From: an uncultured Clostridia bacterium
GTDB lineage: Bacteria > Bacillota > Clostridia > Christensenellales > UBA1242
Length of the DNA: 64,000 bases
Direction of reading: 5' to 3'
Assembly: GCA_944350015.1 (NCBI GenBank)
Contig: CALVNW010000005.1
Span: 12,296 to 76,295, forward strand
Shown: one piece after another, positions 1,074 through 64,000 of the stretch
Layout of the letters: each line of letters starts with the position of its first letter
How positions within the stretch are numbered: the stretch's first letter is position 1
Translations under genes and position numbers: made by a program
The notes under the pieces: generated by a model
Told to the model about the DNA's origin: nothing
The model's database searches: none
What the model saw: only the letters and a program-made list of their open reading frames with translations

Positions 1074-1076
1074 TTT

Positions 1077-1487: not shown

Positions 1488-1517
1488 AACAGCTGTATAA
1501 TATGAATCAGAAACAGT

Positions 1518-3338: not shown

Positions 3339-3460
3339 AAATCCTCCTTTTTGTTATACGCAGTAAAAGGGTAGTTTGTGAAAAATGTCAACATATAACT
3401 ATAGAATTATAATATCATAAAAATTATAAAATAACAAGCAATTTACTTATCTTTTCATTA

Positions 3461-3961
3461 TCAAACCGTTAAAACAGCAACTGCAATAGCACCAGCAAAA
3501 AGCCCGATTGCTAATAGTATTTGAAAAATTCCGACAAATATGTCAAGTTTTTTATATTTTAAACTTGGAGTTGTCTCAAGTTCTGCTTCCAAATTTTCAA
3601 TTTTCTTTTGATTTTTTTCAAGCAATGCTTTTCTTTTTTCTGCTTTATAAACAACACCCATAATCGCCATTGCAAAAGCAGTGAAGGCATAAACGCCACA
3701 ATATTCAAGTGCTGCAATAAAGGTTGCAACAAAGAAAATGCCAATAAAAATTAGCGCAACAACCTTTGCAATTCCACCGCCAAGCGAACCGCCTGTCATA
3801 AGTGACGACAAAAACCAATATTCAAGCCCGAGCGCAGCACCAATAAAAAGCATTGAAAGGATGATTGCAAAAATTCTTGCACCAACTCCACCTCTTTCAT
3901 ATCTTCGCATATCTCTATAATGCCGACTAGGAATACTAAATAACCAACCTAAAAATTTCAT
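3461..3961 (-). CDS. small integral membrane protein, function unknown
   Basis: Start moved to the internal ATG at 3961 (MKFLGWLF...), which is preceded by aaaggggg. Several hydrophobic segments and a C-terminal coiled-coil stretch. Confidence 0.65.
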   Translation of the reverse strand: MKFLGWLFSIPSRHYRDMRRYERGGVGARIFAIILSMLFIGAALGLEYWFLSSLMTGGSLGGGIAKVVALIFIGIFFVATFIAALEYCGVYAFTAFAMAIMGVVYKAEKRKALLEKNQKKIENLEAELETTPSLKYKKLDIFVGIFQILLAIGLFAGAIAVAVLTV

Positions 3962-4070
3962 AAATCCCCCTTTAACAATTATCCTTATTATCAGTATATA
4001 AAAATAAAAGTAAAAAGTCAAACAAAAATAGATATAATAAGTTTTATTTCTCTCGGATTTATAAATCATC

Positions 4071-4354
4071 TAATATAAACTATGTGATGTTAAAATTTTA
4101 TTATCATAAAATTTTATAAATTCTAACGAATTTGCGTGCTTTGCCCGCCCATCACATAGTGTGAAAAACCCTCAGCCTCACCCTTGCAAGCAAGTTCGGC
4201 TTCCGATAATATAAACTATGTGATGTTAAAATTTTATTATCATAAAATTTTATAAATTCTAACGAATTTGCGTGCTTTGCCCGCCCATCACATAGTATGT
4301 AAAACCATCAGCCTCACCCTTGCAAGCAAGTTCGGCTTCCGATAATATAAACTA
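4071..4354. repeat. 136-bp tandem repeat, 2.1 copies; each copy is a nested-palindrome (cloverleaf-like) unit
   Basis: taatataaactatgtgatg... begins at 4071, 4207 and (partial) 4343. An 11-bp closing stem actatgtgatg/catcacatagt (4079-4089/4150-4160) encloses an 11-bp hairpin, a 6-bp hairpin and a weak hairpin. Confidence 0.9.
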
Positions 4355-4446
4355 ATAAAAAAACCAAAAAAATTTTAGACAAATTCAAAAGTTATGAGAT
4401 AAACTTGAATAACACAATTTTGGTAGAGAATATAAGGAATTTAAGG

Positions 4447-4538
4447 GGATTTGATAGCACTAAAAAGCATAAGAAAAGAAGTGCAGGGTGCACTTCTTAA
4501 TCGAAGGGTCGGGGGTTCGAATCCCTGCAAGTCCACCA
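4447..4538 (+). ncRNA. tRNA-like RNA, non-canonical (acceptor stem, T-arm and encoded CCA, but no normal D or anticodon arm)
   Basis: GGATTTG (4447-4453) pairs with CAAGTCC (4528-4534), followed by A-CCA. T-loop GGTTCGAATCC. The interior holds a 10-bp hairpin aagaagtgca-ggg-tgcacttctt instead of an anticodon arm. An 18-bp hairpin follows immediately. Confidence 0.35.
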
Positions 4539-4539
4539 G

Positions 4540-4578
4540 AACAGAAATCACTTTGCAAAATGCAAAGTGATTTCTGTT
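4540..4578 (+). terminator. perfect 18-bp hairpin directly after the tRNA-like element
   Basis: aacagaaatcactttgca-aaa-tgcaaagtgatttctgtt. No T-run follows, so terminator function is not certain. Confidence 0.4.
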
Positions 4579-4629
4579 AGCACGTAAAAAAGAATCAAGC
4601 AAAAACTTACTTTTAAAAACAATAATTAT

Positions 4630-5855
4630 TTATTTTAATACGATCTTACCTTTATAGAAACTTTCCTCTTTCTCTTCAATTTTTTGTCTTTCAGCTTCAA
4701 GCATTTCATAATTTAGAGACAAGATATTTGTTAAATTTAAGGTGTTTTCATAAATTATAAGCAAACTATTTTTTGTGCTGGTTTTTAGATTAGAAATAGC
4801 ATTTTTCATAGACAAATAGATTTCTTCTTTATTTTTGTGACTTGCAAGGTTGGGGAAATCAATTTTGATGTTTTTTAATTTGCAAAGGTCTTTAACAAGT
4901 TGGAGAAAATCCACGATAACCCTCGAGCCTATTTTTTGTTGAATTACAAGTTCTGGCGTTCCTTTTGGAATGGTCTTATTTTTCTTAGACAAATATTCAT
5001 TTCTTTTAGCTTTGTCAAAAATAATTTCAATCATCTCCAATTTTTCTTCAAATTTTTTAATGATTTCTTCAAATAATTCATCGCTTGTGGGAGCAATGAT
5101 ATTGCATTTTTCAATAAAACTATTTGCATTTTTCTCACGCCAAAACTATTTTTTCAGTTGAGCTATGGTCATTTCTTCATATCTTTGTGTGAATTCCTGT
5201 TTGATTGTGGTTTTATTTTCTTGTATGTAATCATTTGCAAAAACAAATTCCTCACCAAAAGTTTGTAAATAAATTTCGTAAAGTTTATCATAGTCTTCAA
5301 TTATTTTGTTTACTGTATGATGAACGTTGAAAGTTTCTGGAATGATTATGCTTTTCTTTAAATATTTTTCAAATATTTCATCGTCTTGAAAATATAAAGC
5401 TTTAAGCTCAGAAAGCTGTTTAAAGCTTGTATATCTAGCATCAAATTCTATGGGAAATATGTAATTTCCTCTTGTGTAGTCAAATTCTATATTTGCTTTT
5501 CTTAATTTTTCATATATTGTGTTGAAAAGGGCGGTGAATATGAGTACTATACTTTGTGTATCGTTTGGGAATTCTTTTATGTCAAGAAATTTTTTGTAAT
5601 CATCTTGAATAATATGTTCGCATTCGTGATAAATTGTTTCAAGAATCTCGTATTTTTTGTTTTATAACTGCCAACAATGTTAAAATATCGCTGGGCGCCT
5701 ACTTCTTTGTATTTTTTGATAAAATCATATAATATATCTTCAAATTCAGTGTGAGTAGATTTGAAAGGGTAGTTTTTATAAAAAAGTTCTATTTTTACCA
5801 AATGATTTTTGTCTAAATCATCAATTTTTAAATTTGACAACTTTTTCGTTAGCAA
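4630..5855 (-). pseudogene. disrupted gene of unknown function (~408 codons; one frameshift plus one in-frame TAG)
   Basis: Three collinear reading-frame pieces. 5855-5577 shifts frame in the A-run near 5650-5662. The second piece (open from 5661) ends AQLKK-TAG at about 5147. The same frame then continues FWREKNANSF... into the 4630-5040 ORF. Confidence 0.7.
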
Positions 5856-5883
5856 TCATAGGCTCAATTATAAAAAGTGTTTG

Positions 5884-6516
5884 TCAAGCATTGTTTTTAA
5901 TTACTAACTTTTCTAATTTATCACAAAGACTTTTGATTTCACCTTTTGATTGGTAAATATTTTCTAATTCAACCTCATAATTTCTAAAGCTGTCAAGAAT
6001 TTCACGAGTAACATCATTAACTGTCCCTTCAATTTGCTTTTTTGTAACTTTTTTATTAATTCCTGCCTCATAATGTGCAACGAGTTTTTCATTTTCAATA
6101 GCAAACACCCAAGTACCTGCCTTATCGTCACTTATTGTAAGGGAAGAAGATTTGTCCCCGCTATAATAACCAATTAAACCATTTAAAATTAAAGATGGGG
6201 TAGGCTGGTCATCACAATCACAAATGTTAATTTCGCCACCATCGGTGCATTTAAATATATAATTACGTGACACACTGTAAGTTTTATTTTTTATATACAT
6301 TAAAAATATTTTTTTTGTAAGCAAATAATCTTTTATTTTATCCCAAAAAAAATTTAACAATGTCTCTTTGTTTTTAGGATAATCTTTACCAGTGTAAACA
6401 CGAGAAGATAAATAACCCGTCTCTAAATCATAAGATACATTAAGGGTTTGTCCCGTTTGTTTGTTAAAGAACCTTGCAAGTTCTTGCATTCTTTTTCCAA
6501 ATTCAATATTATTCAT
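5884..6516 (-). CDS. hypothetical protein
   Basis: 210-aa ORF with RBS aggagaaaaaat upstream of the ATG. No motif recognised. Confidence 0.65.
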   Translation of the reverse strand: MNNIEFGKRMQELARFFNKQTGQTLNVSYDLETGYLSSRVYTGKDYPKNKETLLNFFWDKIKDYLLTKKIFLMYIKNKTYSVSRNYIFKCTDGGEINICDCDDQPTPSLILNGLIGYYSGDKSSSLTISDDKAGTWVFAIENEKLVAHYEAGINKKVTKKQIEGTVNDVTREILDSFRNYEVELENIYQSKGEIKSLCDKLEKLVIKNNA

Positions 6517-6663
6517 ATTTTTTCTCCTATATTAAGTATTATTTTATATTTTAATCCTTCAAAATCCAAAAATAATCTTCAAGTCTCTACCAAATAAATT
6601 ATAGCAAAACCAAAATATTAAGTCAAAAATTTTTGTTAAGGTTTTTGATTAGTTTTGTTTTGC

Positions 6664-6692
6664 TTGATTTTTTGTTTTTATATGATTATAAT
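6664..6692 (+). promoter_or_regulatory. sigma-70-type promoter of valS
   Basis: TTGATT (6664-6669), 17-nt spacer, TATAAT (6687-6692). Confidence 0.5.
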
Positions 6693-6716
6693 TATCTTTA
6701 TTAGAAGGAGACTACA

Positions 6717-9314
6717 ATGGATAAAAACTACTGCCCAGAATTATTTGAAGGTGAGATTTATAAAAATTGGCTAGATAAAAATTATTTTGCCACTAACCCT
6801 GACTCAAGGGAGCATTATAGTATAGTTATGCCACCACTCAATGTTACAGGTAAGGCGCACATTGGTCACGCCCTTGACAACACTATGCAAGATATACTTA
6901 TAAGAACTAAGAGAATGCAGGGGTACAATACTCTTTGGGTGCCAGGCACTGACCACGCAGCTATTGCTACCGAGCAGGTTTTGGTTAAAGACCTAAAGCG
7001 CAATGGCGAGAGCAAGGAGAGTATTGGCCGTGAGGAGTTTTTAAAACGCGGTTGGCAATGGTATGGGAAATACACACACGTAATTTGCGACCAACTTAAA
7101 AAACTAGGTGTATCTTGCGACTGGAATAGACTTGCCTTTACTATGGATGAAAATTTGAATAGGGCGGTAAGGCAGGTGTTTTGCCAGTATTATAAGGAAG
7201 GGCTTATATATAAAGGGAAGAGGGTTGTAAACTACTGCCCAAGTTGTAAGACTACGATATCTGACAACGAGAATGTGCATATAGACCAAAACACATATCT
7301 TTGGTATATTCGCTATCCTTTTGCTGATGGCAGTGGTGAGGTTGTCGTTGCAACAACGCGTCCTGAGACATTGTTTGGTGATACTGCCGTTGCTGTCAAT
7401 CCAAATGACGCGCGTATTAAAGGTCAGGTCGGCAAGGACCTAATTTTGCCACTCGTCAATAAGAAAATCAAACTTATTGCAGATGACTACTGCGAAATCG
7501 GCTTTGGTACGGGCGCCGTTAAGATTACTCCAGCACACGACCCTAATGACTATGAGGTGGGCTTAAGACACAACCTTGAAGTTGTCAATTGCATTGATGA
7601 TGACGGAAAACTTACAGAATGTGCAGGGCAGTTTGCAGGACTTGATAGAATCGAGGCAAGACCGCTTATAGAAAAGGCTCTTATTGATGGCGGATATCTT
7701 GTAAAGAAAGAAAAGTACAAAAATCAGGTTGGCACTTGTGAGAGATGCGGGGCATTTACCGAGCCAAGAATATCAACACAGTGGTTTGTTAAAATGAAGG
7801 ATTTGGCTCGACCTGCAATAGAGGCTGTAAAGACTGGCAAGTTGACCTTCCATCCAAAACGCTATGAAAAGACATATTTAAATTGGCTTGAAAACATACA
7901 AGACTGGTGTATTTCACGTCAAATTTGGCTAGGGCATCGTATACCTGTGTTTACTTGCGCAAATGGACATACTTTTGCAAGTGAGGACTTCCCGACAGAG
8001 TGCCCGGTATGCAAGAGCACAAAACTTGAGCAAGATAATGACGTGCTTGACACCTGGTTCTCGTCAGCGCTTTGGCCGTTCTCTACACTTGGCTATCCTG
8101 AACAGACTGAGGACTTAAAATATTATTATCCAACATCAACTTTGGTTACCGGGTACGATATTATAACCTTCTGGGTGTCAAAAATGGTGTTTTCTGGCAT
8201 AAAATTTATGGGCGATGTGCCTTTTAAAGATGTTGTAATACACGGGCTTGTTAGGGATATTCACGGCGTCAAGATGTCTAAGCACCTTGGCAATGGTGTT
8301 GACCCAATTGATATGATTGATAAATATGGCGCTGACGCACTTAGACTCAGCCTCATAAATGGTATGAGCGCAGGCACTGACATAAAATATGGTGAAGAAA
8401 AGGCAAAAGAGGCAAAAATATTTATCAATAAACTCTATAATGCTAGCAAATTTGTTTTGCAAAATGTAAAAGATATTGAAATTAAGCCAATTAATAGGTT
8501 TAAATTACAAGAGAAAGATAAATGGATACTGTCCGAACTTGACAAATTAGTTAAGTCAGTCAATAAAAATATAGACAAGTACGCTCTTGGCGTTGCAACA
8601 AGTAACCTAATTGAGTTTACAGTTTCAAAATTCTGCGACTGGTATATTGAGCTTAGCAAGGTTGACCTTTACAGCGGAAACGCCGAAGACAAGCAAAGAA
8701 CGCAAAACATCTTGCTCTATACTTTATCGACGCTCCTTAAGGTGTTCCATCCTTTTATACCATTTGTTACAGAGTATATCTATAGAGAGCTCCCAGGCTC
8801 TGAAGAGACTATAATGTATTGTAGCTATCCTAAAAAGGTTGAATTTAAAGGGCTTAAAAATAATTTTGATAGGGTTATCAACATCATTCGTGCTATAAGA
8901 AACGCAAGAGCAGAGTTTAATGTGCCTGACAATAAAAAGACATCTATTTACATCTTGCCTGACGAGAAGGATGCTTTGATTGAAGAAAATCTTGAAGAGA
9001 TTGCAAAGTTGTCAAGTGGAAGTGACTGCAAGCTTATCGCCAGCGAGCCGGACGAAAAATGCACAAAGATAATCTGCGAAAATGTCAAAATTTATTTGCC
9101 AATGGGGCAACTTGTAGACCAAGAGAAAGAGAAAATGCGTCTTGAAAAAGAGATTGAAAAGTTAAAGTTTGAGGTAGCGCGCTCTGAAAAGATGCTATCA
9201 AACCAAGGCTTTGTATCTAAGGCTCCTGAAAATCTTATTACGCAGGAAAAAGAAAAACTTGAAAACAACCGTGCTTTGCTTGCAAAAGTACAACAAGAAT
9301 TTAATAGTCTATAG
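6717..9314 (+). CDS. valS: valine--tRNA ligase
   Basis: 865 aa. HIGH-type motif GKAHIGHAL, KMSKS motif VKMSKHLGN, and the C-terminal coiled coil typical of ValRS. Confidence 0.97.
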   Translation: MDKNYCPELFEGEIYKNWLDKNYFATNPDSREHYSIVMPPLNVTGKAHIGHALDNTMQDILIRTKRMQGYNTLWVPGTDHAAIATEQVLVKDLKRNGESKESIGREEFLKRGWQWYGKYTHVICDQLKKLGVSCDWNRLAFTMDENLNRAVRQVFCQYYKEGLIYKGKRVVNYCPSCKTTISDNENVHIDQNTYLWYIRYPFADGSGEVVVATTRPETLFGDTAVAVNPNDARIKGQVGKDLILPLVNKKIKLIADDYCEIGFGTGAVKITPAHDPNDYEVGLRHNLEVVNCIDDDGKLTECAGQFAGLDRIEARPLIEKALIDGGYLVKKEKYKNQVGTCERCGAFTEPRISTQWFVKMKDLARPAIEAVKTGKLTFHPKRYEKTYLNWLENIQDWCISRQIWLGHRIPVFTCANGHTFASEDFPTECPVCKSTKLEQDNDVLDTWFSSALWPFSTLGYPEQTEDLKYYYPTSTLVTGYDIITFWVSKMVFSGIKFMGDVPFKDVVIHGLVRDIHGVKMSKHLGNGVDPIDMIDKYGADALRLSLINGMSAGTDIKYGEEKAKEAKIFINKLYNASKFVLQNVKDIEIKPINRFKLQEKDKWILSELDKLVKSVNKNIDKYALGVATSNLIEFTVSKFCDWYIELSKVDLYSGNAEDKQRTQNILLYTLSTLLKVFHPFIPFVTEYIYRELPGSEETIMYCSYPKKVEFKGLKNNFDRVINIIRAIRNARAEFNVPDNKKTSIYILPDEKDALIEENLEEIAKLSSGSDCKLIASEPDEKCTKIICENVKIYLPMGQLVDQEKEKMRLEKEIEKLKFEVARSEKMLSNQGFVSKAPENLITQEKEKLENNRALLAKVQQEFNSL

Positions 9315-13587: not shown

Positions 13588-13815
13588 GGCGTCGCAAACT
13601 ACGCTCAGGCTAAGTTGCAGTAGCAACTCTAGCATTATCGCTCGTTTGCTCCTTTCCCCACAGATTAAACAATCTGCGGGGACCCCGAGAAACTTGCATT
13701 TTCGTTTGGCGCGAGAACACCCCTAAAAATCTAACGATTTTCAGGGAAACCCAAAAGAGGCGAAAACAAATGTTAGGACGTAGCTTTTCGCTTTAAAAAA
13801 GCGAAAACAAGCAAC

Positions 13816-13850
13816 AATGCAGTTTTCGCCTCTGGTGCCGAAGACGGGAG
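13816..13850 (-). repeat. 35-nt duplicate of the tRNA-Leu 3' end plus trailer
   Basis: aatgcagttttcgcctctggtgccgaagacgggag occurs at 13816-13850 and 13937-13971. The second copy overlaps the real tRNA. Confidence 0.85.
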
Positions 13851-13953
13851 CCTTCACCCTTAAAATTTGACAATTTTAAGGGAACCCGAACGAACCCTCG
13901 GGTTCGACTCCCAACAAGTATTTCAAAAAAACTGCTAATGCAGTTTTCGCCTC

Positions 13954-14039
13954 TGGTGCCGAAGACGGGAGTCGAACCCGTATGAAGTTGCCCTCGACAG
14001 ATTTTGAGTCTGTTGCGTCTGCCATTCCGCCACTTCGGC
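13954..14039 (-). tRNA. tRNA-Leu (anticodon CAA), type II with long variable arm, CCA encoded
   Basis: The reverse complement reads GCCGAAG-TG-GCGGAATGGCAGACGC-A-ACAGA-CTCAAAA-TCTGT-(variable arm)-ACGGGTTCGACTCCCGT-CTTCGGC-A-CCA. Confidence 0.9.
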
Positions 14040-17300: not shown

Positions 17301-17922
17301 AAGGTGCTGACGTCACTTTTAATCGCCGAAAGGCGCGTATTTTAGTTGCCGAAGGCAACCAAAATACCCCTTAGAAACCCTAAAGCTTAGAAAGACCCCA
17401 CATTTTTTGTCTGAAAAATTTTTTCGAAGTACGTAAATTTGCTTGACAAAAAATGCGGGGGGGGTAGAATAGGGTATCGAAAAAATTGTGGAGACACCAA
17501 AACACTATACGCGGACACGCCTTACAAGTAAGGCTAACCGCTAGTGTACGCATTTTTCGGAATATAGATTCCTCAAATGCTTTTGGTTTCTCTCCCATAC
17601 CCTCTTCCACCCCCTAGAAAATTCCTCTGGAATTTTCGTCGTAAAGAGGAGCCTTACCGGCTACGCTTTTATGACGCAGGGTGAGAGGGGTCGATAAAGG
17701 TGACACCCCTAGTTTAAGTTTTAACTTTATATTTTTAATATGTTTTACTTTAATTTTCCCTTAAAACAACAAATTGAAAATATTTTAAAATTTGTTATTA
17801 AATTTGACGCAATTGTGACGACACGCTTGTGACAAAGGGTAAATTAAAGGTTAAAATAGGGGTATAAACTAGATGATTTTACACAAAGTAATATAAAAAA
17901 TTAAATAAAGGAGTAAGAAAAA
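17301..17922 (+). repeat. conserved upstream expression cassette, copy 1 (contains a copy-specific 248-bp insertion at 17479-17726)
   Basis: Near-identical to 26401-26829 and, from the promoter onward, to 52423-52705. Confidence 0.9.
17443..17470 (+). promoter_or_regulatory. promoter P1 with a G8 tract in the spacer (copy 1)
   Basis: TTGACA (17443-17448), 16-nt spacer aaaaatgcGGGGGGGG, TAGAAT (17465-17470). Confidence 0.5.
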
Positions 17923-26400: not shown

Positions 26401-26829
26401 AAGGTGCTGACGGCACTTTTAATCGCCGAAAGGCGCGTATTTTAGTTGCCTTCGGCAACCAAAATACCCCTTAGAAACCCTAAAGCTTAGAAAGACCCCA
26501 CATTTTTTGTCTGAAAAACTTTTTCGAAGTACGTCAATTTGCTTGACAAAAAATGCGGGGGGGGTAGAATAGGGTATCCAAAATAAATTTTGGATACCCT
26601 ATTCTATATTTTTAAATGTTTTAACCTTAATTCTCTTTAAAAACAACAAATTAAAAATATTTTAAAATTTGTTATTAAATTTGACGCAATTGTGACGGCA
26701 CGCTTGTGACAAAGGGTAAATTAAAGGTTAGAATAGGGGTGAATAATGCAAAAATCGTCGATTTTTGTATATTACTAGATTATTTTACACAAAGTAATAT
26801 AAAAAATTAAATAAAGGAGTAAGAAAAAA
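26401..26829 (+). repeat. conserved upstream expression cassette, copy 2
   Basis: Aligns with 17301-17922 and 52423-52705. Confidence 0.9.
26543..26570 (+). promoter_or_regulatory. promoter P1 with a G8 tract in the spacer (copy 2)
   Basis: TTGACA (26543-26548), G8 at 26557-26564, TAGAAT (26565-26570). The -10 box is part of a 19-bp perfect palindrome, 26565-26606. Confidence 0.5.
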
Positions 26830-49981: not shown

Positions 49982-50077
49982 GGGCGAAAGTCAAAAATTT
50001 TAAAAGCTTTTAAAATTTTTTGAAAAAGTTTTTGCAAAACTTTTTCGGCAAACATTAAAATGTTTGCACTTTCGCCC
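49982..50077. repeat. cloverleaf-like nested palindrome cluster (10-bp closing stem plus three hairpins)
   Basis: gggcgaaagt (49982-49991) pairs with actttcgccc (50068-50077). Inside: a 26-nt perfect palindrome aaaattttaaaagcttttaaaatttt, hairpin gaaaaagtttt-tgc-aaaactttttc, and hairpin gcaaacat-taaa-atgtttgc. Confidence 0.85.
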
Positions 50078-50174
50078 TAGTTAAAATAAAAACATTTGAC
50101 AATAAAAATAAGCCACAATTTATGGTGCTACATTCAGTGATTAAATTGAAAACATAATTATATACAAGATATTT

Positions 50175-50203
50175 AAGATAGAGCGCACCCTCTATCTTTT
50201 TTT
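50175..50203 (+). terminator. rho-independent terminator downstream of parC and the cloverleaf
   Basis: aagatagag-cgcacc-ctctatctt plus a T-run. Confidence 0.65.
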
Positions 50204-50308
50204 GTTAGGAAGTTTAATTAGTTAAATCTTTTAAATTATTAAAAAAATATTAAAAAATCACTTGACAATTGTGTATTTTGTACGCATAATAGATATAGAA
50301 GGTGAAAA

Positions 50309-50974
50309 ATGCAAAAGGAAAACCCATTGTATAAAAATCAGGGGATACACGTGATTACGGCTCTATTTACTGTTGAAGATGGCAAATTTAAGGTGCTTTT
50401 GATTAAAAGAGGTAACGAGCCTTTTAAAAACAAATGGATACTTGTTGGTGGCGCTTGTTATAATAACGAAACAGTCGAAGAGGCAATGAAAAGAGAAATG
50501 TACGAAAAAACAGGATTAAAGGATGTCAAGACAACATTCTTTAGGATTTATTCAGAGCCAAATCGTAGTCCTGTTATGCGTATGCTTGCAGTGGTATATA
50601 TTGGCGTAATTGACTGTAAAAAGGTTAAAATTCTTAAAAAAACTACAAAAACGAAGGATGCAGACTGGTTTTTGATAGATAGAGTGCCTCCGCTTGGCTA
50701 TGACCATAGTGAAATTTTGGTTGATGCAATAGAGTTTTTGAAAGAGAAAATTTTTGACTCTCAGATTTTGAAGGCGCTGTTTCCAGAGACGTTTACTTTG
50801 CCTGATATCTGTAATGCCTACAAAAGCATACTTGATAAAGATATCGATAGACGTAATTTTAGAAAAAAGTTGTTATCAAATAAGATTATAGAGCCAACGG
50901 GAACTTTTGAGACGGTTGAGGGCAAAAAACCTGCAAAATTATATAGATTTTGTAAAGATATAGTAGCGCCATAA
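50309..50974 (+). CDS. nrtR: NrtR-type regulator (Nudix domain fused to a C-terminal winged helix)
   Basis: 221 aa. N-terminal Nudix fold region (WILVGGACYNNETVEEAMKREMYEKTGL). C-terminal FTLPDICNAYKSILDKDIDRRNFRKKL, typical of NrtR. Confidence 0.75.
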   Translation: MQKENPLYKNQGIHVITALFTVEDGKFKVLLIKRGNEPFKNKWILVGGACYNNETVEEAMKREMYEKTGLKDVKTTFFRIYSEPNRSPVMRMLAVVYIGVIDCKKVKILKKTTKTKDADWFLIDRVPPLGYDHSEILVDAIEFLKEKIFDSQILKALFPETFTLPDICNAYKSILDKDIDRRNFRKKLLSNKIIEPTGTFETVEGKKPAKLYRFCKDIVAP

Positions 50975-51077
50975 ATTAAAACAACTTAAAGTAAAAAAAT
51001 GTTTAAAAAATGCTTTTAGCATTTTTAAAAACACTATAAAAGCGTATTTTGTACACATTCATTAAAAGGAGAAAGTT

Positions 51078-52088
51078 ATGAAAAAGAAAACAATTGTTAT
51101 CAATTTTACGGGTGGGCCTGGAGCTGGTAAGTCATTTATGGCAACAAGGCTTGTATCAAATTTAAAGGAAAGGGGGATATGTTGCGAGTATGTTCCTGAG
51201 TTTGCTAAGGACCTTGTTTGGGAAGGGCGAATAAGCGAACTAGGCGATCAGTTATACGTACTTGCAAATCAGGCACATAATATAAGAAGAGTGAGCGACA
51301 AGGTAAATGTAATCATAACCGATAGCCCTATAATACTAAGTATGTATTATAATGAAATTAATAAGTGTTTTAATAGTGAAGATTTTAATAAAATTGTTTT
51401 AGATACATATAAAGGTTATGACAATATTGTATATTTTGTTGAGCGCAATCATCCTTATGAGCAAGAGGGGCGATATCAGACGGAGGAGGAAAGCAATCTA
51501 GTAAGCAAACGAATAAAAGAAATTTTAGATAATAACAATATTAAGTATAGGAGTATTATTAGCTCTGGACAGTCCGCTGAAGAGATTACTGACTTTGTAG
51601 AAAGATTTTTAAAATTATATGGTGAAGAAAAACCTGTTTTTGAGTATGAAAGAAAATTCTTATTAAAGAGCAGAAATATTTTAAGATTAGGTTTTGGCAA
51701 GAAACATATCACGCAGTGCTATCTTGATATTGGGCAAAGCGAGAAGCGAATAAGATGCGTGGATAATAAAAGGTATTTTTTTACAGAAAAAAGGGGTACG
51801 GGCTCATCGCGCCTTGAGTACGAAAAGGAAATTAGTCGCGAAGAATATGAGTATCTAAGAGCAAGTTATCAAAAAGGCAAAACAATAGAAAAAGATAGAT
51901 ATTATTTCAATTTAGAAGGCACAAAGGCTTGCGAGGTAAATAGTTTTATAAGCCCAAGACCAATAAAACTTATTGAAGTTGAATTTGCGGACGAGAAAAG
52001 TATGCAGTCGTTTACACCACCTAAATGGTTTGGCAGGGAAGTGACAAATGATGCAAATTATTTAAACTATAATATCGCGGTAGAGTAG
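51078..52088 (+). CDS. P-loop kinase-like domain (nicotinamide-riboside-kinase/AAA_28-like) fused to a CYTH triphosphate-tunnel domain
   Basis: 336 aa. Walker A GGPGAGKS. The C-terminal half starts with the CYTH-type ExExK signature (FEYERKFLLK). Confidence 0.65.
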   Translation: MKKKTIVINFTGGPGAGKSFMATRLVSNLKERGICCEYVPEFAKDLVWEGRISELGDQLYVLANQAHNIRRVSDKVNVIITDSPIILSMYYNEINKCFNSEDFNKIVLDTYKGYDNIVYFVERNHPYEQEGRYQTEEESNLVSKRIKEILDNNNIKYRSIISSGQSAEEITDFVERFLKLYGEEKPVFEYERKFLLKSRNILRLGFGKKHITQCYLDIGQSEKRIRCVDNKRYFFTEKRGTGSSRLEYEKEISREEYEYLRASYQKGKTIEKDRYYFNLEGTKACEVNSFISPRPIKLIEVEFADEKSMQSFTPPKWFGREVTNDANYLNYNIAVE

Positions 52089-52422
52089 GATTAAAGGAAA
52101 AGCTTGCAAAATGATTGTTTAAGGGATATTAAAAAAATAGGATTTTTGAGTCTAGCAAGCAATCAACCGCTCATACTGTCGTCAGTTGTACGCTGGGCGA
52201 AGTATTAAATTAATCCTCTTTTTGGGGACACAGATAGCGTGTCGCATTTTTTGGCAACCTTAGGTTGCACCATTTTTAATCATCCTCATTGGCAGAAATT
52301 GCGGAGAGATAAGCGATCGTAGCATTTTTTGGCAAGCCCAGGGACTTGGCGAAGCATTAAAATTAATCCTCATATGTGGGACACAGATAGCGTGCCGCAT
52401 TTTTTGTGATAAAAATTAAACG

Positions 52423-52705
52423 AAGTACGTCAATTTGCTTGACAAAAAATGCGGGGGGGGTAGAATAGGGTATCCAAAATAAATTTTGGATACCCTATTC
52501 TATATTTTTTATATGTTTTAACCTTAATTTTCTTTAAAAACAACAAATTAAAAATATTTTAAAATTTGTTATTAAATTTGACGCAATTGTGACGACACGC
52601 CTGTGACAAAGGGTAAATTAAAGGTTAAAATAGGGGTGAATAATGCAAAAATCGTCGATTTTTGCATAATACTAGATTATTTTACGCAAAGTAATATTAA
52701 AAACA
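52423..52705 (+). repeat. conserved upstream expression cassette, copy 3
   Basis: Aligns with 26523-26810 and includes the same promoter, palindrome and leader hairpins. Confidence 0.9.
52439..52466 (+). promoter_or_regulatory. promoter P1 with a G8 tract in the spacer (copy 3)
   Basis: TTGACA (52439-52444), G8 at 52453-52460, TAGAAT (52461-52466), followed by the same palindrome. Confidence 0.5.
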
Positions 52706-52756
52706 AATGCCGAAAGGTGCCTCTTACTACGAGAGGGTTTTTAAAAGGAGAAAGGT

Positions 52757-53920
52757 ATGAAAAGTTTAAAAGTTAAATTAGTGTCAATAGTGTCGGCGTT
52801 TATACTAGCCTTGTCATTACTCATAATCGGCGTATGGGCGGTAGGTGAGACGCAAACAATTACTATGAGTGGTAGTGTTAACTTTGAGATTGCTGACAAA
52901 AGCCTATATGTCCAAGATGTGCGTATGCAAGAGGATAACAACTCTGCACCATATAGTCTAAAAGACCAAGGCAGGTTTATGCCAGGCTACATAAACGGCA
53001 ATTTTGATATGGATTTAGGTGATTTTACAAATAGTTACGGCTCTTTCGCGTTGTATTTTGACATAATAAACACTATGGATGAAACAACAAGTGAGACGTT
53101 TGCCTACATCGTGGAACAGCCAACGGCACCAAGCGGAACAACCGTCAGCGTGTCCATTCTAGGCACGGACGGCACAACACTAGAGCAAATACCACAAGGT
53201 ACAGTTAAGCCATCAGAGATTTCTGATAGTACTCTCGTCACTGCAACAATAAAACTTACAATTGCCACAACTTCGTCATCGACTGTTGATTTAGGTAATA
53301 TTACATTAACAATAAATCAATTTATACCACAAATTTATGACTATTTTACCTTTGAAGTAAATGGTGATGGAAAGACAGTAACACTTACTGACTATAACAA
53401 AAACTTATCAGATAGCACAGACGTGGTAATTCCAGCGACAGTAGATTTAGTTGGTGGTGTTTGGCAGGATGGTACCACCTACACAGTCACAGCAATAACT
53501 GATGGAAATTATAGAACTGGAGTGTTTTATGATAGTGGGATAACAAGTGTAACATTTCCATCAAGCTTAACAAGTATAGGAAGTTATGTATTCTATGGTT
53601 GCAGTGGACTTACAGGAAAGTTAAACTTAGGAGGATGTACAAGTTTAATAAGTATAGGAGGTTTTGCATTCGATGGTTGCAGTGGACTTACAAGTGCAGA
53701 TTTAAGCGGATGTACAAATTTAACAAGTATAGGGAGATATGCATTCTATCGTTGCAGTGCTTTAAAGTCAGTTGTTTTTCCTGAAGGTTCAACTGGGTGG
53801 TATGTGACACAAGACGAAACTGCAACAAGTGGGGATGCTGTTGACGTAACAAATTCTAGCACCAACGCAAACAATCTTACTGGGCAGTATAGCACTTACT
53901 ACTGGAAGCGCAATGCTTAA
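52757..53920 (+). CDS. BspA-type leucine-rich-repeat surface protein (paralog 3)
   Basis: 387 aa. Related signal/anchor MKSLKVKLVSIVSAFILALSLLIIGVWAV. LRRs (LTSIGSYVFYGCSGLTG...). C-terminus YYWKRNA, like paralog 2. Confidence 0.88.
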   Translation: MKSLKVKLVSIVSAFILALSLLIIGVWAVGETQTITMSGSVNFEIADKSLYVQDVRMQEDNNSAPYSLKDQGRFMPGYINGNFDMDLGDFTNSYGSFALYFDIINTMDETTSETFAYIVEQPTAPSGTTVSVSILGTDGTTLEQIPQGTVKPSEISDSTLVTATIKLTIATTSSSTVDLGNITLTINQFIPQIYDYFTFEVNGDGKTVTLTDYNKNLSDSTDVVIPATVDLVGGVWQDGTTYTVTAITDGNYRTGVFYDSGITSVTFPSSLTSIGSYVFYGCSGLTGKLNLGGCTSLISIGGFAFDGCSGLTSADLSGCTNLTSIGRYAFYRCSALKSVVFPEGSTGWYVTQDETATSGDAVDVTNSSTNANNLTGQYSTYYWKRNA

Positions 53921-60247: not shown

Positions 60248-60367
60248 GCGAGACTTGCAAAAAAGCCAAGCATATTTATGCTTGACTTTTTAGGTTTATT
60301 AAATCTAAATTTAATAAACCATTATACCCACCTGTAAACAATAGGTGGGTATAATTGCAAGTCTCGC
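60248..60367. repeat. cloverleaf-like nested palindrome cluster (13-bp closing stem plus three hairpins)
   Basis: gcgagacttgcaa (60248-60260) pairs with ttgcaagtctcgc (60355-60367). Inside: caagcat-attt-atgcttg extended by aaaag/ctttt, a 12-bp ggtttattaaat/atttaataaacc stem, and an 11-bp tatacccacct/aggtgggtata stem. Confidence 0.85.
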
Positions 60368-60552: not shown

Positions 60553-60588
60553 GTTGACTGAGAAGCAAAAATACGCCCAAAAAATTAC

Positions 60589-60632
60589 GTTCCCATAGTA
60601 AAGTGGATATTACAAGCCCCTCCTAAGGGATT
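60589..60632 (+). pseudogene. tRNA 5'-half-like fragment 1 (acceptor strand, D-arm, anticodon loop CTCCTAA)
   Basis: GTTCCCA-TA-GTAA-AGTGGATA-TTAC-A-AGCCC-CTCCTAA-GGGAT. No matching T-arm or acceptor 3' strand follows. Confidence 0.55.
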
Positions 60633-60761
60633 GTCTTACCCGAAACACGAGAGCCCTGAAACCCTTTGAAATAGGGCGGTCAAGAAAATCTCAAAATCGT
60701 GCAACTTTCAAAAAACCATACTTTCGCCATTTTTACCCCTAAAATTTAATAATTTTTATAT

Positions 60762-60805
60762 GTTCCCGTGGCGTAACTGTATAACGCAGCGCCCTCCTAA
60801 GTACC
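60762..60805 (+). pseudogene. tRNA 5'-half-like fragment 2 (acceptor strand, D-arm, anticodon loop CTCCTAA)
   Basis: GTTCCCG-TG-GCGT-AACTGTATA-ACGC-A-GCGCC-CTCCTAA-G... Similarity stops right after the anticodon loop. Confidence 0.55.
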
Positions 60806-60926
60806 GACTTGTACTAAAATAAAACTGCTACATATCCTTAAAATACGGACATTTCACAATCACACAAAACTCACAAAACTACAAATTGCACCCAAAGTGC
60901 ACCAAAACCAATAAAGAACTAAATAT

Positions 60927-61003
<77 letters not shown>

Positions 61004-61039: not shown

Positions 61040-61825
61040 TTATTTCTTTAATATGCCATTTCTAAGTATTGTATAATTAGAAGAATTATACACAATATCA
61101 ATAAATTTTCTTAAGTCTACACCTTTTGGAGATTTTTCTTCAATAATTTTTACAATATTGTTTCTTGGAAATTCTCTTAACCAACTAGATACATATTTTT
61201 TAGCTTCGTCAAATGATAATATGTTATTGCTTTTTAATAAATAATAGCAGGAATAACAATCAAATGAATTTATGTTTTCATGCAAAGATAAAACGCATCT
61301 TCGTGCTGATGAGTCGTGAGAAAGCAAGGAAATAACCTTAACATTTTCCAATCTGTTACATAGCGAAATATTTAGCAACGTAACAATCTCTCCAATATTA
61401 TTATCCTTTGAAATATTTGTCACAATTAACTCGAACTCATTAATAAAGTGATCTATATCATATTGCATTATACTTAAAGCTTCTAACTTATAAAAGTTAG
61501 ATTGATAAAACGATTGATCTTCTTGTATGTTCTCACAAATGTCTTTCAAAGTTGATAATAATAAAGATTGTATGGCACTATCTGATAAAAAATCTTTTAA
61601 TGCACTTATACATTCTGAACTTTTAATAAGTTTGATTTTACCTTTAATTATTAGATCAACCAATTGCTTTTTTAATGAACTATTTTTAATTTCATTAAAT
61701 ACTATATTAGTTATTCTAAACGAATATGGCAGCTCCATAATTTTATCAAATAACGTGGAAGAGTTGTTTTTTATTTTAGAAGTTTTGATTATGAAATCTG
61801 CATCAAGATAAACAATATTAATCAT
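61040..61825 (-). CDS. hypothetical protein, possible PIN-like N-terminus; third gene of the XRE-ImmA module
   Basis: 261 aa. Overlaps the ImmA-like gene by 8 nt. The N-terminus MINIVYLDADFII resembles the first acidic motif of PIN/DUF4411-type domains (weak evidence). Confidence 0.6.
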   Translation of the reverse strand: MINIVYLDADFIIKTSKIKNNSSTLFDKIMELPYSFRITNIVFNEIKNSSLKKQLVDLIIKGKIKLIKSSECISALKDFLSDSAIQSLLLSTLKDICENIQEDQSFYQSNFYKLEALSIMQYDIDHFINEFELIVTNISKDNNIGEIVTLLNISLCNRLENVKVISLLSHDSSARRCVLSLHENINSFDCYSCYYLLKSNNILSFDEAKKYVSSWLREFPRNNIVKIIEEKSPKGVDLRKFIDIVYNSSNYTILRNGILKK

Positions 61826-62639
61826 TTTCTTTCTTTAATAATTTTTGTATAATTTCTTCCACTTTATTTTTACATCTAGACGCCTTATTCGACGAAATAA
61901 ATTCATAATTTTCATTTTCATTAATTAATTCACTTAAATCATCTAAATCCACATAATTTTTAATAGGATGTTCCCATCTAGATCTATGATGAGCAAAATT
62001 TAATTTTTCTAAGTCGTTTCGAGTTTTTGAGTTTATAGATTTAATAAATTCTTGTGCATCTTCAAAAGTTAATTTTCCTAGCTCGTATAATCTTATAACA
62101 GCCGTCTTATATGGTACAACAAAGATATCCATTAGTGCTTTTATAGAAACTATTTTTTCTTCTAGTGTTGAAATCTCTTTTGTAAAAACTAAATTTATTA
62201 AATCTGCTGGCATTAATAAGCAAGAACTAAATGCGTTTGCTTTCTGGTCTTCTAATGACAACTGTACTTTTCCACCAATATCCTTTAATATGTCCATAGC
62301 ATACACAAAATCTTCTTCTAAAGCTACAATAAAATGATAAAATTCATGCGCCAATGCAACATTTTGTTTATTTATTGAAATTTCACTATTTATTACTATA
62401 AAATAAATTCCGTTTCTTTGATAAAACAAACCCCATACTTGCTCATCATTAAAAGGTAAGTACAAGATTTTTAAATGCACGCCATGTTGAGTTGCGTAAT
62501 TTTTAATAAAAGCTTTTAAATTTGAACCTATCAATCTAAACATGGGTGCTGTTAGTAAAACATTATTTGCCTTATTTTCAATTTCCTTAAAAGATTTATA
62601 GTCTTTACTAAATAAACATTCTGATAATTGAATAGCCAT
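61818..62639 (-). CDS. ImmA/IrrE family metallo-endopeptidase (COG2856-like)
   Basis: 273 aa. HExxH motif ALAHEFYHF. Lies immediately downstream of an XRE HTH gene, which is the typical pairing. Confidence 0.8.
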   Translation of the reverse strand: MAIQLSECLFSKDYKSFKEIENKANNVLLTAPMFRLIGSNLKAFIKNYATQHGVHLKILYLPFNDEQVWGLFYQRNGIYFIVINSEISINKQNVALAHEFYHFIVALEEDFVYAMDILKDIGGKVQLSLEDQKANAFSSCLLMPADLINLVFTKEISTLEEKIVSIKALMDIFVVPYKTAVIRLYELGKLTFEDAQEFIKSINSKTRNDLEKLNFAHHRSRWEHPIKNYVDLDDLSELINENENYEFISSNKASRCKNKVEEIIQKLLKKEND

Positions 62640-62641
62640 AT

Positions 62642-62989
62642 CTACTCCTTATTGTCATTTAAGTATTGTTGTTCTACATACAAATCTGATAATTCAAAAA
62701 TGTTATTTAAAACATTCTCTGTTTCCGGCTTTGAAATTTCTCCCATGAAAAAAGCAACCATATTTTCATTTGATATTGGTGTTTTCTTAGTTAAATCTTC
62801 AATTTTACAATTAAAAAATTCAGCAATGCTTGCGAATTCATTTGCCAACAAGTTTCTTTTGCCTGCAAGAATTTTATTAACTGTTTGTCTAGGTAATTTT
62901 AAAAATTTTGCCAAATCTGACTGCTTTTTTTCTTGAATATTTAACATTTCTGATATATTCTGTGCAACCATTAAATCAAAATTTTCCAT
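62642..62989 (-). CDS. XRE-family HTH transcriptional regulator
   Basis: 115 aa. QSDLAKFLKLPRQTVNKILAGKR helix-turn-helix. Confidence 0.85.
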   Translation of the reverse strand: MENFDLMVAQNISEMLNIQEKKQSDLAKFLKLPRQTVNKILAGKRNLLANEFASIAEFFNCKIEDLTKKTPISNENMVAFFMGEISKPETENVLNNIFELSDLYVEQQYLNDNKE

Positions 62990-63077
62990 ATTACATACTC
63001 CTTTGCGTATATATTTTACATATTATTTTAGTCATTGTCAATATATTTTATTCAAATTGTCAACAAATTGGTGACAA

Positions 63078-64000
63078 TTATTCAAATATTTTATTTAATA
63101 TCTCACTTGCATGGATATCTGAGTTCTTTATAAAGTGGCTGTAGAAGTCGCTTGTGGTTGATGCTTTTGAGTGTCCTGCACGAGCAGATACTGTTTTCAT
63201 ATCTACACCTGCTACTAGTTGTAGTGTTATGTTTGTGTGTCTTAATGAGTGTAATGTTACCTTTGGCAAGTCAACTTTTGCCAGTGTCTTTTGTAGCCAT
63301 ACTCTAAATAATCCAGGTGAAATATCTGTGCCATCTTCTGTGCAGAATAATCTATCTGTATCTCCGAGCCTATCTCCAAGATATTTCTTTTGATTTAGCC
63401 ACCATACTTCATATTCTTTTAAGTAGTCAATTAGTTTATCTGGCATAGATATTGTTCTTTTTGAGTTTTCTGTTTTAGGTTCTTTGGTTATTAGCCCGAA
63501 TCCTATAATATCTTGAACAGATCTCGCTATTGTCATTGTCTTGTTTTCGTAGTCTATATCTTTCCATTCTAACCCTGCGAGTTCGCCACGCCTTAACCCC
63601 ATAAATAGCACTGTAAGTAGTGCTATCTTCCATCTTGGATTTGGTTCTGTGTGTAAGTAGTTGGCAAGTATCTTAGCTTCTTTATCATTTAGTATTTTGA
63701 CTTCTTTTTTATAGCCTTGTATTGGTGCTATATAGTCACGGGATGCGAAGTTGTGTTCAACCAGTCGTTGTCGCTTTGCATCTGCCAGTATTGTTGCAAG
63801 TGTTCGTTTTAGTTTCATTATGGTTTCTTTTGCATAAGCATGGCTTTGTACCTCTGTTGTAAAGTAATCTTCATACTTTAAACCTAATGCATTACATATC
63901 TTTTCTGCATTTTCTGTTCGTATGCAATAACCAGCATTTGCTGATGCTAGTATTGATTTAGATATTCCAATCTTTTTTAGAGCATCTACTTGTTTGATGC
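63078..64000 (-). CDS. tyrosine site-specific integrase (5' end runs off the window)
   Basis: The frame stays open upstream of the listed ATG to position 64000. Catalytic motifs LRRGELAGL, HSLRHT and GHSKASTTSDFYSH. Confidence 0.88.
   Translation of the reverse strand, partial: IKQVDALKKIGISKSILASANAGYCIRTENAEKICNALGLKYEDYFTTEVQSHAYAKETIMKLKRTLATILADAKRQRLVEHNFASRDYIAPIQGYKKEVKILNDKEAKILANYLHTEPNPRWKIALLTVLFMGLRRGELAGLEWKDIDYENKTMTIARSVQDIIGFGLITKEPKTENSKRTISMPDKLIDYLKEYEVWWLNQKKYLGDRLGDTDRLFCTEDGTDISPGLFRVWLQKTLAKVDLPKVTLHSLRHTNITLQLVAGVDMKTVSARAGHSKASTTSDFYSHFIKNSDIHASEILNKIFE

Follow-up and report, generated by a model that had tools for sequence, protein, structure and literature searches.

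What kind of genetic element consists of one perfect stem closed around three consecutive hairpins, with nearly every base paired, and does it carry its structure as RNA or as DNA? The question is raised by the spacer behind parC in a stretch of 64,000 nucleotides (hereafter the window) from an uncultured Clostridia bacterium, where such a structure lies between the parC stop codon and its terminator, and by two further loci of the same design. The three loci had been pointed out in a preliminary description, which left the choice between RNA and DNA undecided; all of them, each with its closing stem and three hairpins, are present at the positions listed in Table 1, where they are designated W1, W2 and W3, the last as a pair of copies (W3a and W3b).

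Table 1. Coordinates and anatomy of the nested-palindrome elements in the 64-kb window.
Feature	Position	Strand	Description
W1	49982-50077	.	type A element
W1 closing stem	49982-49991 / 50068-50077		10 bp
W1 first hairpin	49993-50020		AAATTT hairpin, 12 bp
W1 second hairpin	50021-50047		11-12 bp
W1 third hairpin	50048-50067		8 bp
W2	60248-60367	.	type A element; closing stem GCGAGACTTGCA, 12 bp
W2 first hairpin	60260-60291		6+7 bp; A5...T5, terminator-like
W2 second hairpin	60293-60320		12 bp; A/T hairpin
W2 third hairpin	60321-60355		15 bp
W3a	4079-4160	+	type B four-way-junction module; closing stem ACTATGTGATG / CATCACATAGT, 11 bp
W3a hairpins	4091-4116, 4118-4133, 4134-4148		11, 6 and 3+2 bp
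W3a tail (module 2)	4161-4214	+	helix AGCC...GGCT at 4174-4201 around a small variable hairpin
W3a tail, conserved 3′ end			TTCCGATAATATAAA; with the next unit gives the dif-like 28-mer 4199-4226
W3b	4215-4296	+	second type B four-way-junction module, head-to-tail copy
W3b tail	4297-4350	+	ends in ...CCGATAATATAAA, followed by the flank CTAATAAAAA
Possible decayed type A element	13756-13833	.	closing stem AGAGGCGAAAAC; membership uncertain

In all three loci, the helices abut with 0-1 unpaired nucleotides between them (at most 1 nt in W1). W3a and W3b are identical and spaced 136 bp apart, so that the tandem repeat reported earlier is an exact copy. The architecture ascribed to W2 also stands, but its last hairpin measures 15 bp rather than the 11 bp given before, and the conserved, separately structured 55-nt tail of the W3 unit had escaped notice. 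A possible fourth locus, 13756-13833, has one good internal hairpin only, and its right arm lies within a duplicated tRNA-Leu 3′ flank; it was not counted with the other loci but taken for a decayed or coincidental structure that goes with the duplication of the tRNA-Leu end.

For W1, W2 and W3 alike, the minimum free energy fold is the described architecture on both strands under RNA parameters, with z-scores for the two strands of -7.2/-7.1 (W1), -15.5/-13.2 (W2) and -6.5/-8.2 (W3), and none of 200 dinucleotide shuffles per locus folded as well as the native sequence. DNA parameters applied to the + strand return the same fold, with z-scores of -8.0, -15.9 and -8.5, respectively. A descriptor that demands three or more branches, 78% or more of the bases paired and a perfect closing stem no shorter than 8 bp picks out exactly four sites in 64 kb, namely W1, W2 and both copies of W3, and not a single site in 15 block-wise dinucleotide shuffles of the window. 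The two checks proposed in the preliminary description, folding against shuffled controls (z from -6.5 to -16, the native fold never equalled) and a descriptor search, thus bear out its judgement that the pattern is very unlikely to have arisen by chance. W1 and W2 have identical copies in independent assemblies from other samples and are therefore not assembly artefacts. Because the palindromes are nested and perfect, either strand takes the form of a fully paired four-way junction once it is single-stranded or a cruciform is extruded; the folding models agree with the earlier proposal in that such a junction would form in single-stranded RNA as well as DNA.

The relationship between the loci becomes apparent from a survey of 78 parC loci of related species (about 740 kb, some 10 kb per relative), which together with the window make up about 800 kb; these relatives, here given L numbers, are labelled in databases as uncultured Clostridia, Christensenella or Catabacter. 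A hairpin-chain descriptor gives 21 hits in this sequence, approximately one per 40 kb. When the settings were tightened so that the closing stem had to be perfect and 8 bp or longer, stems 6 bp or longer and linkers no longer than 2 nt, 16 chains were obtained. Every one of them contains exactly three hairpins, none two, four or five, and the shuffled clade loci yield no chains. In about 600 kb of metagenome loci, mostly unrelated, every hit was either low-complexity sequence or a further family member, and a metagenome scan with a 9+9-nt pattern returned 120 loci, about 12 of which are family members and the rest mostly chance matches. Nothing more than low-complexity sequence underlies the descriptor hit L012:6670 and several of the metagenome hits.

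Most members share an A/T-rich AAATTT first hairpin adjoining the left closing arm; it comes first in W1 and W3 and takes the middle position in W2, which departs from the usual order. The middle hairpin is often built as an A-run, a stem and a T-run, and the third is richer in G+C. The closing arms are perfect and 10-16 bp long in every copy and fall into two types. In type A (W1, W2, L009, L011, L013, L015, L179:8946), the stem is GGCGAGA/GCGAAA-like, with GCGA(A/G)A common to W1, W2 and most type A copies in relatives, and a stem similar to that of W2 is found at L179:8946-9048. In type B, the closing stem is CTATGTGAT(G), represented in W3 by CTATGTGATG, which is invariant over at least 11 distinct variants; members of this type are W3, L016 and L044 and, from metagenomes, L126, L140, L148, L149, L163, L172, L175, L179:769, L192, L200, L202 and L204. 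Both types occur on one contig in L179, and copies residing on the same contig share blocks only (L009:566 versus L009:10317). The three loci had been regarded as unrelated in sequence, a view that has to be given up: W1, W2 and W3 are members of one clade-wide family in uncultured gut Clostridia, with recognisable shared sequence in the closing stems and the AAATTT hairpin.

This family of 80-120-bp repeats is previously undescribed, and searches of open-access full texts brought up no relevant description of four-way, nested-palindrome or cloverleaf repeats in bacteria. The earlier failure to recognise the structure as a described repeat class is borne out as well, there being no match in Rfam, tRNA models or plasmid, phage or viral collections. 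More specifically, Rfam gives no hit at the gathering threshold, and permissive scans of the three loci give sub-threshold chance hits only; ARAGORN and Rfam find only two true tRNAs in the window, neither of them at these loci. The family also differs from the tRNA cloverleaf, with its 7-bp acceptor stem and conserved D and T loops, in its stems, which are 6-15 bp long, and in that no loops are conserved. BLAST of the W3 array against plasmids and phages gave chance A/T matches or nothing, and scans of viral contigs for the type B tail and closing stem found none.

Many type B units carry, in addition to the junction module, a tail of about 55 nt, which reads TATGTATGACCATC-AGCC-TCAC-[small variable hairpin]-TTC-GGCT-TCCGATAATATAAA. 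The tail helix covaries, with AGCC/GGCT replaced by AGTC/GACT, GGTC/GACC or AGTTTTGC/GCAAAACT. The ends of the full unit (junction module plus tail) are not inverted repeats, and units follow one another head-to-tail in the window, L044, L140 and L175. Over a stretch of varying length (4-11 nt), the left flank is similar to the 3′ end of the unit itself, as in ...GATAATATAAA, in AATATTGC of L044 and in GATAATATAGA of L140; judging from the sequences, this looks like site-specific insertion beside a recognised sequence and not like a target duplication of fixed length. For type A, neither a target-site duplication or flanking direct repeat nor conserved flanks were found.

As to genomic context, the copies occupy permissive intergenic sequence, are mostly located just 3′ of genes, and most of them lie between ordinary core genes of conserved order. 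W1 starts 21 nt 3′ of the parC stop codon and about 100 nt upstream of the terminator-like hairpin 50175-50198, and is probably part of the parC 3′ UTR. W2 is situated 3′ of the rplS terminator hairpin, upstream of or bordering a tRNA-Arg integration hot spot whose downstream content varies among strains. W3 lies within a low-GC island together with an IS3-type transposase ORF and unannotated genes. The parC locus has 100% protein identity to the MAG CAMLSW01. W1 is invariant across the strains sampled, and W2 is present in 10 of 10 strain contigs with a single SNP in a loop; for neither of them was an empty and a filled allele seen within one species among these strains, the sample containing no relatives between 99% and 89% parC identity. 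One strain contig, L007, lacks 3.5 kb (window 50076-53548) starting exactly at the right end of W1, but this breakpoint may be a misassembly, since other contigs end exactly at the borders of W2. Palindromes of this kind break metagenome assemblies at their borders, which is relevant to the reading of rearrangements in MAGs.

Between species, occupancy of the same sites differs. Relatives whose parC is 86-87% identical have no W1 in the parC-nrtR spacer, which is about 175 nt shorter, and their homology to the window ends at the loop of their parC terminator hairpin. The parC 3′ region is occupied by W1 in the window, by a different type A copy in L012, and by two tandem type B units in L044, where the pair overwrites the last parC codons. 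Similarly, the rplS 3′ region bears W2 in the window and a type B copy in L126, and no element was found there in 20 contigs from two related species. W3 and L163 have an identical 80-nt core, while other DNA shared by L163 and the window is approximately 71-93% identical, mostly 71-78%. Sites that are empty or replaced from one species to another require repeated insertion or replacement. The check for insertion or deletion polymorphism in related strains, proposed in the preliminary description, shows no variation among the strains sampled, all of which carry W1 and W2; occupancy varies at the species level. The idea that a pre-existing hairpin had served as a target in L022 was rejected, as the spacers of its relatives are short and unstructured and the long outer stem belongs to the element.

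While the sequence turns over, the structure is kept. Covariation was measured on stems aligned from the junction outward, and arms show 97-100% Watson-Crick pairing with their own partner as compared with 25-57% with a swapped one. The orthologous copies L012:8529 and L013:8376 differ in their closing stems and second hairpins by substitutions that compensate each other; a two-sequence alignment gives 70% mean column identity overall, and by eye, identity is about 80% in the element and about 55% in the flanks, where indels are numerous. Type B copies have an invariant closing stem and similar first hairpins and diverge in the sequence of the second and third; when MAFFT alignments of this type were given to RNAalifold, the closing stem alone was recovered, the hairpins being out of register in the alignment. 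In the third hairpin, the loop may be inverted on an unchanged stem (GTT in L016 and L202, AAC in L148), a change typical of intra-strand template switching at palindromes. The strict number of three hairpins and the better conservation, by eye, of the orthologous copy relative to its flanks suggest a host-level function over a purely selfish repeat.

The evidence on the level of constraint comes from 27 elements with about 980 base pairs, among which G.T/U pairs number 14 on the strand that has the first hairpin first and 8 on the other (about 1%). The folding energies of the two strands are equal, and the orientation relative to flanking genes is mixed; the first hairpin comes first on the parC strand in 11 non-redundant copies as against 4, a difference that is not significant. 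No loops or unpaired bases are conserved among the copies, and no promoter or terminator flanks them consistently, W1 preceding a terminator and W2 following one. Because G.T pairs are as rare as 1% and symmetric, energies are equal, orientation is mixed, loops are not conserved and Rfam gives no match, the balance leans to a constraint acting on DNA, or on both strands, over one acting on a strand-specific RNA. The near-perfect pairing could, instead of a DNA-level constraint, reflect the young age of the copies.

The same observations bear on the possibility that the loci constitute a structured RNA family, either sRNA genes or cis-acting 3′-UTR elements, whose junction is a functional RNA fold serving, for instance, to protect mRNA 3′ ends or to be recognised by an RNA-binding protein or RNase. 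Such a family would account for the great stability of the predicted RNA folds, the covarying helices and the position of W1 between the parC stop codon and its terminator. Most copies, being situated 5-170 nt past a stop codon or, as in the parE-parC spacer of L015 and L022, between genes of the same orientation, are probably transcribed, and by inspection a weak promoter-like motif, TTGCAA-17-TAATAT, is seen in the type B tail ahead of the next unit. An RNA family would, however, be expected to show the strand preference that is missing from the fold, the energies and the G.U pairs, and it fits neither the mixed orientation with respect to flanking genes nor the inconsistent promoters and terminators around the copies, nor the placement of W2 downstream of the rplS terminator. 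Moreover, many middle hairpins resemble bidirectional terminators, which would cut a full-length RNA, and the lack of conserved loops and unpaired nucleotides and of any Rfam match points the same way. On balance, we hold this explanation to be unlikely.

The reading that we favour, and consider fairly probable, is that W1-W3 are copies of a lineage-specific, dispersed, non-coding family of nested palindromes acting at the DNA level and REP/MITE-like in its lifestyle. Each copy consists of a terminal inverted repeat of 10-16 bp around exactly three abutting perfect palindromes. New copies would be inserted by a trans-acting enzyme to which the folded junction, together with conserved blocks, serves as the recognition signal; these blocks may be the closing stem and the AAATTT hairpin and, in type B, also the ...TTCCGATAA-TATAAA-CTATGTGATGT junction. 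Two enzymes can be put forward as candidates, a tyrosine (Xer-like) recombinase and an HUH single-strand transposase. The palindromes might then be held perfect by selection and/or by intra-strand template switching. Copies that are transcribed, such as W1 in the parC 3′ UTR, would produce a very stable RNA junction and may incidentally affect termination or mRNA decay, and RNA-level side effects of this sort are compatible with a constraint at the DNA level. Against the favoured reading stand the lack of an enzyme partner or autonomous element in the loci examined, the missing target-site duplications and conserved flanks of type A, the fixation of W1 and W2 in the strains sampled, the post hoc and modest dif resemblance described below, insertion at many sites where a classical Xer-exploiting element would need a single dif locus, the possible young age of the copies, and the signs of a host-level function.

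Comparison with described repeats shows both affinity and distance. REP sequences of Enterobacteria and Pseudomonas, which are mobilised by RAYT (Y1 HUH) transposases whose genes often have REPs on their flanks, are single imperfect hairpins of about 35 nt with a conserved 5′ tetranucleotide of the GTAG type, and BIMEs are pairs of REPs without a closing stem. Like them, the present elements are short, non-coding DNA-level palindromes that occur mostly 3′ of genes or between convergent genes, in both orientations, are restricted to a lineage and are probably co-transcribed into mRNAs; unlike them, they have a perfect closing stem around exactly three hairpins, a unit of 80-120 nt and four helices, and the GTAG motif is absent from all family copies, the closing stems being GGCGAGA-like or CTATGTGATG; for these genomes, no RAYT gene is known. 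Pneumococcal BOX elements (boxA-boxB(n)-boxC), whose A and C modules pair with each other and so enclose the boxB hairpins, together with MITEs such as RUP, Correia, ERIC and bcr1, resemble the family as non-autonomous intergenic repeats of about 100 bp that have terminal complementarity and a strong predicted structure and are often transcribed. BOX and MITE-type families are characterised by conserved sequence modules that vary in number and by target duplications that are fixed (TA for Correia), whereas here the sequence is largely free, the hairpins are fixed at three, the helices stand 0-1 nt apart and there is no duplication of fixed length. Thus, of the features by which MITEs are recognised, terminal inverted repeats are found in every copy as perfect arms of 10-16 bp, and a target-site duplication of fixed length is not, the flank similarity of type B varying from 4 to 11 nt. 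MITEs are further expected to occur as many near-identical copies per genome and to have a related autonomous IS that bears their ends; in this family, copies on one contig share blocks only, W3 and L163 have the same 80-nt core, and no autonomous copy was found in the loci examined. The inverted terminal repeats of parvoviruses (AAV), too, consist of an outer stem enclosing small palindromes and show a loop flip/flop like that of L016/L202 versus L148; they are three-way and T-shaped and terminate a linear viral genome, unlike the four-way family, which is internal to the bacterial chromosome.

Type B would be the clearest case for recognition of a folded junction by a recombinase or transposase acting in trans. 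The tail/head junction of its units, GCTTCCGATAA-TATAAA-CTATGTGATGT, comprises the most conserved blocks of the unit and has the 11-6-11 layout of dif sites, in which a 6-bp central region separates an 11-bp XerC arm from an 11-bp XerD arm. It matches dif of B. subtilis at 20 of 28 positions and those of E. coli and F. alni at 18 of 28 each (dif sequences taken from PMC3025954). In these genomes, a 20/28 match to dif turns up by chance about once in every 100-200 kb; the resemblance, which was noticed post hoc in the sequences, is statistically modest and may be called suggestive. A second, poorer copy of the junction site lies inverted on the other side of the four-way junction, which recalls CTX-phi, in which two att sites in inverted orientation, separated by 90 bp, pair with each other on a single strand (PMC4246890). 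These features lead to a more speculative proposal, which is possible but which we would not expect to prove right, that in Firmicutes a site-specific recombinase or single-strand transposase acts on the elements by virtue of their structure, recognising, cutting and rejoining a built-in, fully paired four-way fold of DNA that is like a Holliday junction, and that type B units are miniature integrative elements of about 136 nt with a dif-like Xer junction in their circular or tandem form. If this were true, the family would be a Gram-positive counterpart of attC/CTX-phi attP biology, and type B would represent the smallest Xer-exploiting elements known.

An alternative enzymology for type B is provided by single-strand transposases of the IS200/IS605 kind. 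Elements of this group have subterminal hairpins at both ends and neither terminal inverted repeats nor target-site duplications, insert 3′ of a specific short sequence and are moved by TnpA (Y1) in trans. Their non-autonomous derivatives (PATEs) are similar to type B in lacking an inverted repeat that spans the unit, in having hairpins near both ends, in forming head-to-tail copies, and in their oriented insertion immediately 3′ of a short sequence resembling the element's 3′ end; by analogy, hairpins near both ends, oriented 3′ insertion and tandem copies make type B compatible with such an enzyme. PATEs differ from the family in that the left end of type B is a four-way junction and not a simple bulged hairpin, and type A has neither a tail nor a flank signature. 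The sequence examined contains no TnpA or TnpB gene and no omega-RNA-like or IS605-related Rfam hit. More broadly, it yielded no candidate gene for a recombinase or transposase partner, and no autonomous element with type B ends was found in the loci examined. None of the 20 window ORFs searched with Pfam (10 of them also with PHROGs) is a Y1 transposase; the window has only one integrase gene, which is of phage type and lies at 63078-63818. Pfam and PHROGs were uninformative for the island proteins next to W3, and tblastn of these proteins against all type B loci revealed no shared neighbour genes.

A related explanation treats the loci as folded single-stranded recombination sites that delimit exchangeable DNA and are not self-moving repeats. 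Integron attC sites and CTX-phi attP(+) are its models, as they are recombination substrates set by the fold of one strand and not by sequence (PMC4246890), and the conservation of structure without sequence and the position just 3′ of genes, where attC follows each cassette gene, agree with them. So do the missing 3.5 kb that begins in L007 exactly at the right end of W1, the location of W3 in a low-GC island, of W2 at the tRNA-Arg hot spot and of 13756 beside the duplicated tRNA-Leu end, the dif-like type B junction, and the intra-strand pairing of the CTX-phi att sites. But inspection of all copies shows none of the RYYYAAC/GTTRRRY cores, extrahelical bases or bulged, unpaired central spacer of attC, and the fold is a four-way junction where attC and attP(+) form a single bulged hairpin. 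There is no integron integrase (intI) or cassette array, the flanking genes being parC/nrtR, rplS/tRNA-Arg and similar, and most copies sit amid core genes in conserved order. Insertions occur at many sites and not at one dif locus, in contrast to CTX-phi and the classical Xer-exploiting elements (IMEX), and the L007 breakpoint may be due to assembly. We therefore consider delimiting recombination sites quite improbable.

It could also be supposed that the structures are immobile and evolved locally at the ends of genes as compound intrinsic terminators or insulators, their hairpins halting transcription from either side and the closing stem being incidental. Five copies do fill convergent gaps (L008, L009:566, L011, L012:524 and L082), and in L082, L011 and L012:524 they occupy the greater part of the gap; L082 has a textbook bidirectional terminator as its middle hairpin, and W2 has a first hairpin of the form A5-stem-T5. 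By eye, some middle hairpins of relatives, like that of L082, and the first hairpin of W2 appear terminator-like. Nevertheless, a scan for intrinsic terminators, which are G+C-rich hairpins with a T run behind them, flags 50175-50198 and 4476-4498 and no hairpin of W1 or W3; the real parC terminator lies 100 nt further on, and rplS has its own terminator ahead of W2. Copies also reside in divergent promoter regions (L026, L072) and in the parE-parC spacer. Identical closing stems and AAATTT hairpins at non-orthologous sites of different species, tandem arrays and the overwritten parC end cannot arise by local evolution, and an origin as terminators is accordingly very hard to credit. Finally, chance clustering of palindromes in A+T-rich intergenic DNA has next to no standing as an explanation, for although A/T-rich spacers readily give A-run/T-run hairpins, as in the low-complexity hits mentioned above, it is refuted by the shuffled loci, window and clade sequences, by the fixed number of three hairpins and by the recurrence of the motifs across species.

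If the loci are, as we favour, copies of a dispersed DNA-level repeat family, they join the interspersed palindromic repeats such as REP, BOX and Correia, which have been informative on genome plasticity, mRNA stability and the mechanisms of transposition. To our knowledge, the palindromic repeat families described so far are all sequence-defined. The present one is defined by a strict topology of one closing stem, exactly three hairpins and no linkers, and its fold outlasts an almost complete turnover of sequence in an abundant uncultured gut lineage. Such a pattern points to a protein that reads a four-way DNA junction, or to a self-correcting palindrome mechanism, and the conserved closing stems, the AAATTT hairpin and the dif-like junction offer handles for deciding between the two.

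The right end of W1, the four-way-junction palindrome 3′ of parC, is the exact breakpoint of a segment that is missing from L007, a contig of a strain 97.7% identical. When positions 6605-6835 of this contig are set against 50076-53548 of the window, L007 is seen to lack nrtR and the AAA_28/CYTH gene as well as the beginning of the LRR_5 gene. The gap either reflects a real deletion bordered by the element or was created by a misjoin at the palindrome during assembly. At the rplS locus, the strain contig L091 stops at the first bases of the second such palindrome, W2, and L094 at its last bases; therefore, assemblers break at such palindromes. In L094, the 21 nt directly to the left of W2 are tandemly duplicated (GCTCAATAAAATATTGTTTCC).

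A type B element is found at the end of parC in L044 (5486-5513), where the parC frame extends 21 nt into the element and terminates at a TAA within its first hairpin. In the closest relative, L056, ParC has its native C-terminal residues; in L044, they are replaced.

Within the window, the type B array W3 lies in a low-GC island (positions 1-6500, about 28%), in which the gene strand is reversed. Apart from an IS3-type transposase, the island carries six ORFs, including one for a 606-aa lipoprotein-like protein, for which Pfam and PHROGs gave no confident family assignment; there were only two marginal PHROGs matches (E about 0.003), whose function is unknown.

The 3′ end of tRNA-Leu(CAA) is duplicated together with its downstream flank (13818-13851 is the same as 13940-13973), and an inverted T-arm fragment is located at 13899-13915. 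This arrangement, within 13756-14039, looks like leftover att sites of an integrative element. One closing arm of the weak nested palindrome at 13756-13833 is supplied by this duplicated sequence. Upstream of tRNA-Arg(CCT), within 60560-61003, there are two tRNA-like 5′ fragments with a CCT anticodon loop. The island past this tRNA (61040-63818) encodes an integrase, an HTH protein, and an ImmA-like peptidase, and its gene content varies among strains: L086, L088, and L090 carry genes for UvrD-like helicases, and L087 has an SMC/AAA_21 gene.

Besides the four-way-junction elements, the window bears a second repeat family, a block of about 110 nt at three places.

Coordinates of the repeat blocks, tRNA genes, and transposase ORF in the window
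Feature	Position	Strand	Location
Second-family repeat block	17370-17560		
Second-family repeat block	26470-26610		
Second-family repeat block	52395-52510		
tRNA-Leu(CAA)	13954-14039	minus	
tRNA-Arg(CCT)	60927-61003		
IS3-type transposase ORF	261-1037		low-GC island

The block ends in a near-consensus promoter (TTGACA-17 nt-TAGAAT). Two copies lead into a 42-nt perfect palindrome, identical at 26565-26606 and 52461-52502, and the first copy continues into a G+C-rich structured stretch (17470-17560, containing CGCGGACACGCCTTACAAGTAAGGCTAACCGC). No Rfam family matched these repeats at the gathering threshold. The same promoter and structured stretch are found again 3′ of rplS in related species (L229-L238), and the family looks like an unannotated promoter/ncRNA cassette.
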